From Pseudomonadota bacterium (GTDB taxonomy: Bacteria; Pseudomonadota; Alphaproteobacteria; Dongiales; Dongiaceae), in assembly GCA_046724215.1 (NCBI GenBank), contig JBKOWC010000176.1, forward strand, positions 1 to 29,522: 29,522 bases of DNA, given 5' to 3'. Made by a program: the position numbers and the translations under genes. Each line of letters opens with the position of its first letter. Position 1 is the stretch's first letter. The notes beneath the pieces are model-generated. The model had not been told where the DNA came from. It worked only from the letters and a program-made list of their open reading frames with translations, and searched no databases. Positions 23,730-26,028 of this stretch are shown here, piece after piece.

Positions 23730-24743
23730 TTAACCCCGGCGTTTGTTGCCGTTCTTGTTGCCGGGCGCTTGTCCCGGATGTTCACGGGCGAGGCCGCGAG
23801 CCGTGGTCTCGTCGGTGATGAGCCCGTAAAGGAGTCCGCTGTTCAGGATGGCGCGAATGGGTCGGACCTTGCTGCGGCCGCCGGCGATGGCGAGCAGCTG
23901 CCGGCCGCGCAGATCCTCGACGCTCAGCGACAACGCCCGGGCCGACAAATCGGTTTCGATCTGCTGACCGTCGACGCCGAAGAAGTGACCGAGAACCTCG
24001 CCGTAGCCGCCGGCCTGCTTCAGTTCGGCGAGTTCGTTCGGCCGAATCATGCCGCTGGCCGCCAGGAAGCCCGTCGTCTCGACCTCGCCGATGCCGACGA
24101 TGAGAAGCGACGCCCGCCGCGCCAGTTGAACCACATCGGCGATGCCGACCTGGGACATGAGGACATTCTTGTCCTCGACCGAATTGGCGAAGGCAGGCAC
24201 CGGCATGAGGTAGGCTTCCGCCGCGGTCCGTTCGGCCAGCTTGTGGATGACGTCGAAAGGATTGGCGGCAAACTTTCGCGTGAGCCCACCGAGCAAGGAG
24301 ACGAATTGCACGCCGGGTGCCGGCGTGCGCGGCAGATGTTCGATCGCCGCCGCCAGCGTGCGCCCGTGACCGATGCCGATGATCTTGTGTTCGCTGTGTT
24401 CGAGAACGCCGCGCAGACAGCGCGCCGCGGCAATACCCAGGGCGCGAAACGGCAACGCCCCCTCGTCGAGATCCGGCGCCACCTCGCAGTAGCGAAGTCC
24501 GTAGCTCGACTTCAGCGCTTCTTCGAGCGCCACGCACTCGGCCACCGCGCCATCGACGAAGACGCGGATGAGCCCCTCGCGATTCGCGCGCGCGATCAGC
24601 CGATGCGCCTTCGTGCTCGGCACGTTCAGTCTGTCCGCGACTTCCCTCTGGGTCTTGCCGCCGGCGAAGTACAGCCATGCTGCCCGCGCAGCCAAGCTCG
24701 ACTCCGCGTCGAACTTCGAACCGAACCCGTCCGGGTGGCTCAT
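23730..24743 (-). CDS. eryD: Erythritol operon regulator (SorC family)
   Basis: LAARAAWLYF...TKAHRLIARA, YCEVAPD, GIGHGRTL, FVSLLGGLTRKFAANPF and LYGLITDE match EryD as I recall it. Start ATG 24743 with GGAG RBS. Confidence 0.88.
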   Translation of the reverse strand: MSHPDGFGSKFDAESSLAARAAWLYFAGGKTQREVADRLNVPSTKAHRLIARANREGLIRVFVDGAVAECVALEEALKSSYGLRYCEVAPDLDEGALPFRALGIAAARCLRGVLEHSEHKIIGIGHGRTLAAAIEHLPRTPAPGVQFVSLLGGLTRKFAANPFDVIHKLAERTAAEAYLMPVPAFANSVEDKNVLMSQVGIADVVQLARRASLLIVGIGEVETTGFLAASGMIRPNELAELKQAGGYGEVLGHFFGVDGQQIETDLSARALSLSVEDLRGRQLLAIAGGRSKVRPIRAILNSGLLYGLITDETTARGLAREHPGQAPGNKNGNKRRG

Positions 24744-24786
24744 GGGTCCACGTCTCCGTCCGTTTGCAATTTTTTTTGTCATCTGC

Positions 24787-24815
24787 AATATTTTGCATCT
24801 CGTGGAAGGTGTCAA
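24787..24815 (-). promoter_or_regulatory. Candidate sigma70 promoter of the eryD-ABC-ery operon with overlapping operator-like palindrome
   Basis: TTGACA (24815-24810), 17-nt spacer, AATATT (24792-24787). TGCAA-TATT-TTGCA inverted repeat (24784-24797) covers the -10. Confidence 0.6.
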
Positions 24816-24842
24816 TACGCAATCGATTCCGCACCGCAGCAC

Positions 24843-24916
24843 GACGAGTACGCTGGGTGCGATAACTGATCCTGCCGTACTCGTCTTCGCCGATCCCGGC
24901 GCCTTGGGCCGGATCG
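24843..24916. repeat. Two tandem hairpins downstream of the tRNA
   Basis: GACGAGTACG (24843-24852) / CGTACTCGTC (24876-24885) perfect 10-bp stem. CGATC-C-CGGC / GCCG-GATCG bulged stem (24891-24916). Confidence 0.6.
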
Positions 24917-24935
24917 AACCGGCCGGTGTTCGAGT

Positions 24936-25234
24936 TGGTACGGACGGGGGGACTCGAACCCCCAACCCCTTACGGGGAGCAGATTTTCGTACCACTTCGA
25001 CTTTCGCCGCCGCCGCATGGGCGTTTGTGGTCTGGACTATCCCTTCGCCATGGCCTTTTTTGGCCGCAGGCGCCACCCGTCTAGTCTCCACACCTTCCCC
25101 CAAGAGGGGGCTTGGCTCGGGATTGGCCTAGGTCGCCCCTTAGCTTTCCCCGAGTTTGGGCGGTTCTACGCCGCGAGTTTCCTCGCGGGCACTCCAATGA
25201 AGTCTGCTGCGTTTACCGATTTCGCCACGTCCGC
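24936..25234 (-). tRNA. trnL: tRNA-Leu(UAA), intron-interrupted: exon 1 25234-25200 (35 nt), exon 2 24987-24936 (52 nt)
   Basis: Joined exons give GCGGACGTGGCGAAATCGGTAAACGCAGCAGACTT|AAAATCTGCTCCCCGTAAGGGGTTGGGGGTTCGAGTCCCCCCGTCCGTACCA (87 nt). Acceptor stem GCGGACG/CGTCCGT, anticodon stem GCAGA/TCTGC, loop CUUAAAA, long variable arm CCCC-GTAA-GGGG, GTTCGA T-loop, encoded CCA. Confidence 0.95.
24988..25199 (-). ncRNA. Group I intron (IC3-type), 212 nt, inserted after U34 of the anticodon
   Basis: P1 ACUU|/GAGU with U.G at the splice site. P2 CCGCGAG-GAAA-CUCGCGG. P3 CCGCCC/GGGUGG. P4 CUCGGG/CCCGAG. P6a CCCCC-UCUU-GGGGG. P7 G(A)GACUA/UAGUCC. P8 CGCC..GGCC-A6-GGCC..GGCG. ACCAC/GUGGU pairing near the 3' end. 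Terminal G before the 3' exon. Confidence 0.93.
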
Positions 25235-25289
25235 GTCGGCTCTGCATCGCCGTGCCATAGCGCATCCTCTTATGCAAAGCACGACGTTC

Positions 25290-26028
25290 GACGCGCTCTG
25301 GGAATCGGGACCTTCGTCGGGCTCGTCGATTGCATCGTCGCCGGCATGCTGAACGACCAACCCGCGCTTGCCTTGGTTATGTTGATCGCATGCCCGATGG
25401 CCTATGGCCTGATGGGGGCACTGATCCATTGGCGCCAGCTCCCCTCGATCGTCGTGACCCTGGGAGCCTCGTTCGTGTGGCTTGGCCTGGCTCTGATGGT
25501 GCTTCCTCTGCCGGGCGGCAGGGTGCCAGCGGTGCTGACAGGGTTCGTCCGTCTGCATCCGCCGTTTGCGCCGATGCCGATCGTGCTCGCCGTTATTCCG
25601 ATGGTGATCGCGCACCTCATTCTCAACAAGATGTCTTACGGCGTCGTGCTGCGCGCGGTAGCCTGGCTGCGGTCGAGCGCGCCGGTCGTTCCACCCTGAA
25701 GGCGCGGATGATCCTCTATGTCATGGCCGGAGTCTGCGGGCTGTGCGCAGGGCTCTGCCTCGCGGCGACGACGACAACGGGCGATGCCAATGTCGGGCGC
25801 GGCCTCACGCTGGTGTCGATCGGCGCTGTCATCATCGGCGGCGGCGAGTTCGTCGGCGGCATCGTGTCGCCCATCGGCACGGTGTTCGGCGCACTGATCA
25901 TGCAGCTGTCGGGGTCGCTGCTGAGCTTCGCCTCGGTGCCGCCCGCCTGGCAGTACAGCATCCAAGGCGCCATACTTCTGATGATCCTGGCGCTGCGGGT
26001 CGTCACCGGAAGGCGGAGACCGGCATGA
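25290..26028 (+). pseudogene. CUT2 (RbsC-like) ABC permease, 5'-truncated and frameshifted
   Basis: Frame A reads LGIGTFVGLV...LPSIVVTLG...YGVVLRA. Frame B continues GSLAAVERAG...SIGAVIIGGGEFVGG...QGAILLMILALR. The shift is near 25655-25660. No in-frame start or RBS for the N-terminal part. Confidence 0.8.

Follow-up and report, generated by a model that had tools for sequence, protein, structure and literature searches.

The window, by which we mean the whole 29,522-nt stretch of DNA analysed, most probably carries an accessory second tRNA-Leu(UAA) gene that is split by a compact, ORF-less, IC3-like group I intron and lies in a horizontally moved cassette at a synteny breakpoint. The split gene itself, a tRNA-Leu(UAA) interrupted by a group I intron, is confirmed far beyond chance. 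The intron is one more member of a catalogued, widespread class and has low novelty; what is specific to the window is the second copy, the breakpoint against a broken permease gene and one unusual substitution in the intron core.

The split tRNA-Leu(UAA) gene

The gene spans exactly positions 24936-25234 on the minus strand. Its parts, together with the gene downstream of it, are:

25234-25200, minus strand: tRNA-Leu(UAA) 5′ exon, 35 nt, comprising the acceptor 5′ strand, the D arm, the anticodon stem 5′ strand and C32 U33 U34; its last base, U25200, is U-1 of the 5′ splice site
25199-24988, minus strand: ORF-less group I intron, 212 nt, identified by Rfam Intron_gpI, covariation and the MFE fold
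24987-24936, minus strand: tRNA-Leu(UAA) 3′ exon, 52 nt, comprising A35 A36 A37 A38, the anticodon stem 3′ strand, the long variable arm, the T arm, the acceptor 3′ strand, the discriminator A and an encoded CCA (24938-24936)
23730-24743, minus strand: SorC/EryD-type regulator gene, downstream of the tRNA, whose open frame continues upstream to 25103

According to ARAGORN, the joined exons form an 87-nt tRNA-Leu(taa) with a complete cloverleaf, a 3-bp D stem, a long variable arm, the anticodon UAA and an A73 discriminator, and the 3′ terminus reads ...CGUCCGU-A-CCA. The intron lies between U34 and A35, such that the rejoined 7-nt anticodon loop is CUUAAAA. Its 3′ terminal base, directly before the 3′ exon, is G24988, the omega G. 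These data agree with the first-pass annotation, which had described exons that rejoin into an 87-nt tRNA-Leu(UAA) around an intron between U34 and A35.

Standard tools did not detect this gene. Default ARAGORN called no tRNA in the window, and Rfam at the gathering score yielded no match anywhere in it. With introns allowed, ARAGORN reported a split gene at c[24936,25234] with an intron of 212 nt, labelled Phe(gaa). We rejected this label because the boundary was off by one base. The boundary CUU|...ACG|AAAA was chosen instead as it is the only one that provides U-1, omega G and a class II (long-arm) Leu tRNA. The intron option, which the first-pass annotation had proposed as a check, therefore returned the correct interval and intron size with the wrong boundary and isotype. 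The outcome of the other proposed check, the Rfam group I model, was similarly divided: under permissive filters, the intron matched the full length of Intron_gpI (positions 1-253 of the model) with 25.3 bits and a local E of 3e-4, but this score falls short of the RF00028 gathering threshold of 50. The gene was likewise missed in 16 of 16 relatives, both by ARAGORN in its default mode and by Rfam at the gathering score. Since the Intron_gpI model recovered none of these 16 clear homologues at the gathering score, its threshold is insensitive for this intron family, and the blanks obtained on the window reflect tool settings, not absence of the gene.

The practical point for this genome is thus an annotation gap, in which a tRNA-Leu(UAA) is invisible to default tools and open frames run over the gene. 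Both aspects had been anticipated in the first-pass annotation, which warned of a missed tRNA and of spurious ORFs. More specifically, the 457-aa frame of the regulator contains an HTH at residues 138-180 and a Sugar-bind domain at residues 187-438. As this frame stays open through the 3′ exon and into the intron, gene callers could over-extend the regulator. Because all 16 tested relatives were missed, the tRNA counts for many Proteobacteria, Acidobacteriota and Bacteroidota are probably too low.

Fold and conservation of the intron

We drew a P1-P9 structure on the window intron and tested it against 91 aligned, distinct homologues in tRNA-Leu(UAA), the drawn structure being derived from one member of that alignment. 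The search pattern preset the columns of the first exon bases, the P9 5′ strand and the P9b loop, which carry no weight. The structural elements are:

25203-25191, minus strand: P1, in which exon ACUU (25203-25200) pairs with the guide GAGU (25194-25191), with a U25200·G25194 wobble
25188-25171, minus strand: P2, 7 bp, with a GAAA tetraloop; double (compensatory) changes in 7/7 pairs
25163-25158 with 25078-25073, minus strand: P3, spanning the P4-P6 domain; 99.6% paired, 5/6 pairs covarying
25154-25148 with 25122-25116, minus strand: P4; 95% paired
25144-25126, minus strand: P5/P5a
25115-25093, minus strand: P6/P6a; P6a 94.5% paired, 4/4 pairs covarying
25089, minus strand: J6/7 base directly 5′ of P7; G in the window, A in 90/90 other introns
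25088-25082 with 25039-25034, minus strand: P7, the guanosine-binding helix, comprising G25088, bulged A25087 and GACUA (25086-25082) with UAGUCC (25039-25034); 99.8% paired
25072-25046, minus strand: P3′ and P8, inside P7; P8 99% paired, 3/4 pairs covarying
25031-25027 with 24995-24991, minus strand: P9, ACCAC with GUGGU; the preset 5′ strand is uninformative
25023-25011, minus strand: P9a hairpin, inside P9; 4/4 pairs covarying
25009-24998, minus strand: P9b hairpin with a GAAA loop, inside P9; 100% paired, 2 pairs covarying

Across the 91 introns, 92.1% of cells held standard pairs, versus 29-46% when the 3′ partners were slid by 1-3 columns. Both sides had changed in 40 of the 64 pairs, and none of 500 shuffles matched any of the observed pairing measures. 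Covariation extended over P2, P3, P6a, P7, P8, P9a and P9b. In a clade of beta- and gammaproteobacterial introns, two to three P7 pairs were switched from CU/AG to GC/GC. The single-sequence MFE fold (z = -2.9) independently recovered P3, P4, P5, P6a, P8 and P9.

The features that define a group I intron were also present. The 5′ splice site U forms a U·G wobble with the internal guide, accompanied by three further pairs; the U·G pair and the C-G pair of P1 were each conserved in 91/91 homologues. The intron ends in an omega G, and T/G boundaries occurred in 101 of 113 related loci among the matches listed. Finally, the P3-P8 core contains the P3/P7 pseudoknot and the P7 bulged A, and its helices carry compensatory changes. 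The predicted P1-P9 fold of the window intron is strongly supported by these comparisons, with which the first-pass description of a complete catalytic core is consistent. The data support a bacterial-tRNA (IC3-like) group I intron between U34 and A35 of tRNA-Leu(UAA), and self-splicing is predicted.

A splicing scheme can be proposed from the homologous pre-tRNA introns of Azoarcus and Anabaena. The precursor would be transcribed from a short promoter directly upstream, and the exon end ACUU would pair with the intron guide GAGU to form P1, whose splice-site pair is a U·G wobble. P7 would bind a free guanosine, which would attack after U34. The terminal G24988 would take the same pocket, and the freed U34 3′ OH would attack after G24988, joining the exons within the anticodon loop CUUAAAA. 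The excised intron would be left with no known further role.

At 108 of the 110 columns conserved at ≥90%, the window intron retains the consensus base. One deviating column corresponds to a change from U·G to C-G in P3, which is harmless. In the Tetrahymena and Azoarcus structures, the adenosine that is replaced by G25089 reportedly takes part in base triples stacked about the guanosine-binding pocket; contigs of relatives from RNA libraries have the consensus A at this place. G25089 is the one reason to doubt full activity of the intron. Within the tRNA, one D-loop position is A in the window versus G in 95% of homologues, and the 1-72 pair is G·U. The bin uses UUA at only ~0.17 per 1000 codons. 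Given this rarity and the resident copy described below, selection on the window's tRNA copy may be weak.

Relation to known introns and distribution

Introns of the Leu.3Ug type, one of four classical types, have been catalogued across bacteria (Williams 2020, bioRxiv 10.1101/2020.01.27.920355), at a time when the Rfam group I seed was without bacterial sequences. Like this class, which is classical in cyanobacteria and plastids, the window intron is small and lacks an ORF, inserts at CUU|AAAA with U-1/omega-G boundaries and has a P1-P9 core and GAAA loops. Its P9 architecture is that of the seed Ncf2.Leu.3Ug in the Williams 2020 alignment, which also includes Azoarcus and alphaproteobacterial Arg intron seeds. 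It differs from the cyanobacterial branch in belonging to a proteobacterial subclade with an ACCAC/GUGGU P9, and from the class in that the gene is an accessory second copy with a unique G at the J6/7-P7 junction.

The Azoarcus Ile and Agrobacterium Arg introns have a compact core of ~200 nt, GAAA tetraloops in L2 and L9 and an anticodon-loop location, as does the window intron, whose GAAA loops cap P2 and P9b. Their J6/7-P7, J8/7 and P9b sequences are nearly identical to those of the window. These introns, reportedly of subgroup IC3 and residing in tRNA-Ile(CAU) and tRNA-Arg(CCU), respectively, differ in the tRNA they interrupt and in their loop position, 36/37 as opposed to after nucleotide 34. 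A tRNA-Leu(UAA) group I intron has reportedly been found in a subsurface Pseudomonas-like gammaproteobacterium, so that the site is said to be known in Proteobacteria already; that intron is said to possess a receptor-like motif in P8, like the window's, in a host of a different class.

The first-pass annotation had implied that such an intron would be rare in this setting. However, a pattern scan of species-representative genomes returned at least 120 loci, 113 of which were parsed, and at least 99 species had a tRNA-Leu(UAA) intron with U-1/omega-G boundaries. Among the matches listed, hosts included Alpha-, Beta- and Gammaproteobacteria, Acidobacteriota, Bacteroidota and Bdellovibrionota, with single Planctomycetota, Chloroflexia and Chlorobi-type MAGs. 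Many of these hosts were Alphaproteobacteria, among them Bradyrhizobium, Rhodovulum, Reyranella, Sphingomonas and Caulobacter, all with cultured representatives, as well as Brevundimonas, Azospirillum, Paracoccus and Enterovirga. Cultured strains with the intron include Rhodovulum steppense DSM 21153, Reyranella soli NBRC 108950 and Sphingomonas canadensis FWC47. The suggested novelty, which presupposed a lineage in which the intron was not yet documented, likewise does not survive, given that Leu.3Ug is treated as classical (Williams 2020). As the class is already catalogued, a further member adds little biologically.

Within an even sample of the window's class, 38 of 401 genomes (~9%; 34 of 308 genera) had a BLAST-detectable relative of the intron. 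Among 41 relatives, a full split gene was found in G008, which is of the same family (identity 90%), and in G033, which is of a different one (78%). A further relative, G005, has an intronless version of the gene. Variants of the arrangement were also observed. Genome G035, of the same class, has a related 223-nt group I intron in a tRNA-Lys(UUU) gene (L004:1486-1784, on G035:C38). At least six loci among the matches listed have C-1 instead of U-1, giving the anticodon CAA after joining; this is the 'Leu.3Cg' class, whose splicing needs testing (Williams 2020). In 13 of the 113 parsed loci, among the matches listed, introns at the same site measured 336-847 nt, leaving room for an insertion or ORF.

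According to an intron tree from a quick search with modest supports, the window intron pairs with that of G008 (SH-aLRT 93) inside a mixed alphaproteobacterial subclade, in which the next neighbours come from MAGs of Stellaceae and Aliidongia and from an uncultured alphaproteobacterium. On the tree, taxon labels were clustered, yet required 22 changes versus a minimum of 10, and one clade mixed Beta- and Gammaproteobacteria with near-identical introns on very short branches. This pattern fits a mix of descent and transfer. The assignment of the DNA to an alphaproteobacterium in the first-pass annotation receives indirect support: the intron nests among alphaproteobacterial introns, while the clusters of look-alikes of one protein of the window in a protein atlas lead to the Pseudomonadota only.

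Genomic setting and integrase islands

The host MAG comprises 363 contigs, with a completeness of 68% and 2.3% contamination, and the window contig is C300; both the exact junction and the co-occurrence of the two copies in one cell depend on how the MAG was binned and assembled. A search for 16S rRNA in the MAG found none. The GC content of the window contig is 65.2%, versus 67.5 ± 1.5% for the bin. The second tRNA-Leu(taa), at C327:6956-7044, is intact and intronless and has a different acceptor stem. The flank upstream of this second gene shows synteny with a G008 locus in which an island resides. Two further features adjoin the split gene:

25235-25277, minus strand: short upstream region with the motif GCGCUAUGGCACG at ~25264-25252 and TTGCAT at ~25277-25272, aligned by eye
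25277-26025, plus strand: 5′-truncated, frameshifted ABC (BPD_transp_2) permease gene abutting the cassette, delimited by comparison with the orthologue in G002

A cassette of ~330 bp (24932-25263), comprising the gene and ~30 nt upstream, is shared with G008 at 88-90% identity in an unrelated context. Beyond 24932-25263, the window and the G008 locus resembled each other in neither DNA nor protein, and the window showed no synteny with any of the 120 named loci among the matches listed. The left flank, an erythritol-type (ery) locus, is conserved in five genomes of the same family, with similarity stopping at ~24700-24710; none of these five has a tRNA at the left- or right-flank site. On the other side, the permease gene matches only residues 81-325 of its G002 orthologue, the first 80 codons being gone, and homology starts at ~25277-25298. 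The permease reading frame changes near 25645-25663, and the gene is either a pseudogene or the product of a MAG consensus error. The cassette lies ~40 nt from the breakpoint that truncates the permease, and in G002 the counterparts of the two flanks are on different contigs.

By these comparisons, the gene and its ~30 nt of upstream sequence appear to behave as a small, horizontally moved cassette at a synteny breakpoint. In this MAG it occupies the point at which two conserved segments, otherwise unlinked, come together, and the resident intronless tRNA-Leu(UAA) is intact elsewhere. Of the two inferences in the first-pass annotation, a less-studied trnL intron lineage or horizontal acquisition, the latter best fits the second copy, the breakpoint and the sharing of the cassette with G008 in an unrelated context.

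Many members of the window's intron subclade have an upstream motif, GCGCU-N-UGGCACG, ~15-25 nt 5′ of the tRNA. Counterparts occur in loci L002, L140, L106, L131, L069 and L003, with TTGCAT about ten bases further up. Together, the motif and TTGCAT are a possible alphaproteobacterial-type promoter, in which the motif may be a -10 element that travels with the cassette. A sigma-70 consensus scan yielded no promoter for the split tRNA gene. Soil metagenomes carry the locus as DNA; of the words sampled from 24700-25500, as many as 44% occurred in several of them. Four soil metatranscriptome runs contained contigs of relatives at 90-95% with exon and intron still joined, in RNA libraries that can contain DNA. 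The ligated exon junction was absent from these metatranscriptome contigs, which drop short RNAs and mature tRNAs.

The island pattern in related loci is the more interesting lead, of which the window is itself no clean example. In G008 (C19:44515-65911; L142:1516-3170 and L143:7372-7873), a 21.3-kb island splits a tRNA-Leu(UAA) of the resident type at CTTAAAA. The displaced 5′ half, ending in CTTAAAA, lies 206 nt upstream of the intron-bearing tRNA-Leu, and the displaced 3′ part, starting with CTTAAAA, lies 21.3 kb downstream and adjoins a P4-type tyrosine integrase. The cargo of this island includes DndB/TGT (Dpd-like) and Fpg-like genes. Enterovirga aerilata DB1703, a cultured strain, has a like layout of ~58 kb (G045:C4:487731-546115; L112, L145), with an integrase 64% identical to that of G008 and a displaced 3′ half whose acceptor strand matches the displaced 5′ half. 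Among the matches listed, a displaced 5′ half occurred upstream of the intron-bearing gene in ~22 of 102 loci, some of which had a weak integrase match between the half and that gene. A tblastn search of the named 8-kb loci with the G008 integrase gave no matches, the expected outcome for an integrase encoded at the island's opposite end. It is precisely the 7-nt core, CTTAAAA, that the intron interrupts. In these relatives, the cassette seen in the window supplies the tRNA that takes the place of the resident gene, which the integrase island destroys.

These layouts resemble tRNA-dependent lysogeny of actinobacteriophages (Guerrero-Bustamante and Hatfull 2024, PMC10865867). The likeness in G008, Enterovirga aerilata and other related loci is that an integrase element severs the resident tRNA at a short core, leaves it unrepaired and brings a replacement tRNA of the same isotype. 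By contrast, the phage tRNAs are not known from that account to be intron-bearing, whereas the replacement gene of the relatives is split by its intron exactly within the 7-nt core. In the literature searched, we found no publication that connects group I tRNA introns with integrative islands. The window departs from the lysogeny system in having neither a split resident gene nor an integrase. More specifically, the window contig contains no CTTAAAA and no Phage_integrase match, no spare tRNA-Leu halves were found for the window, and the best match to the G008 integrase in the 68%-complete MAG, at 25% identity, is no orthologue. A resident tRNA that was split and left unrebuilt occurs in G008 but not in the window, where the resident copy on C327 is intact.

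A tentative extension, on balance doubtful for the window, is that its cassette is a stranded island module, the remnant of a landing outside a tRNA gene or of decay, which truncated the permease gene, and that ORF-less introns spread by island carriage, not by homing. Such islands would recombine at the anticodon loop of tRNA-Leu(UAA), and the island's own tRNA would be no target, because the DNA copy of the core in it is split by the intron. If true, the carriage of intron-split replacement genes on islands that break the resident gene just where the intron sits would account for the uneven scatter of ORF-less tRNA introns across phyla.

Three other accounts have to be weighed against a horizontally moved accessory copy. 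It is unlikely, but not negligibly so, that the gene is a decaying redundant copy, a group I intron-tRNA by descent whose splicing is no longer efficient and which the resident tRNA makes dispensable. G25089, the D-loop substitution, the G·U pair at 1-72, the intact second gene, the very rare UUA codons and the damage to the adjoining permease gene are all consistent with decay. However, every helix and all other conserved core positions are intact, the 1-72 G·U pair is common to 9 of 102 homologues among the matches listed, and the same D-loop position deviates in the apparently sole working tRNA-Leu(UAA) copy of G008; single-base differences in a MAG may moreover be consensus errors. We consider it still less probable that the context alone is an artefact, through a metagenomic misjoin or two co-binned related populations, around a real intron-tRNA. 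The fragmentation, completeness and contamination of the MAG and the GC content of the contig leave room for such an error, the cassette is conserved at ~90% among relatives and could seed chimeric joins, and the ery locus and the permease gene are unlinked in G002. Nevertheless, both flanks resemble same-family genomes at 70-85%, the region spanning the gene is represented in several soil metagenomes, and a repeat-mediated misjoin would not create the permease truncation at ~25277, as this point is outside the conserved cassette, which ends at 25263.

Least probable of all, and very unlikely, is an ancient vertical trnL intron of the cyanobacterial/plastid lineage that was kept in this alphaproteobacterial family and lost in most relatives. 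The insertion site and architecture do match the cyanobacterial seed of the Williams alignment, taxon labels cluster on the intron tree, and the split gene is apparently the sole tRNA-Leu(UAA) in G033 and in the closest named relatives (the genomes of L082, L023 and L140). However, only 3 of the 41 relatives have the intron in tRNA-Leu, and members of the family have different, intronless types of tRNA-Leu(UAA). Within this MAG, the gene lies at a breakpoint as a second copy, and in G008 it is island cargo; the near-identity of beta- and gammaproteobacterial introns across classes also argues against descent alone. We saw neither congruence of the intron tree with the family species tree nor conserved synteny of the intron locus. 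The horizontally moved accessory copy remains the reading that we prefer.

A second layout occurs among the named loci, in which L044:928-2199, L090:733-2004 and L128:2353-3558 each have a frame of ~420 aa with weak tyrosine-integrase matches below the Pfam cut-offs. This frame sits between a tRNA-Leu sequence of the resident type and the intron-bearing tRNA-Leu. The resident-type sequence is a truncated 5′ half in L044 and L090, whereas ARAGORN calls it complete in L128. The arrangement in L044 is followed by an AAA_21/SMC-like ATPase.
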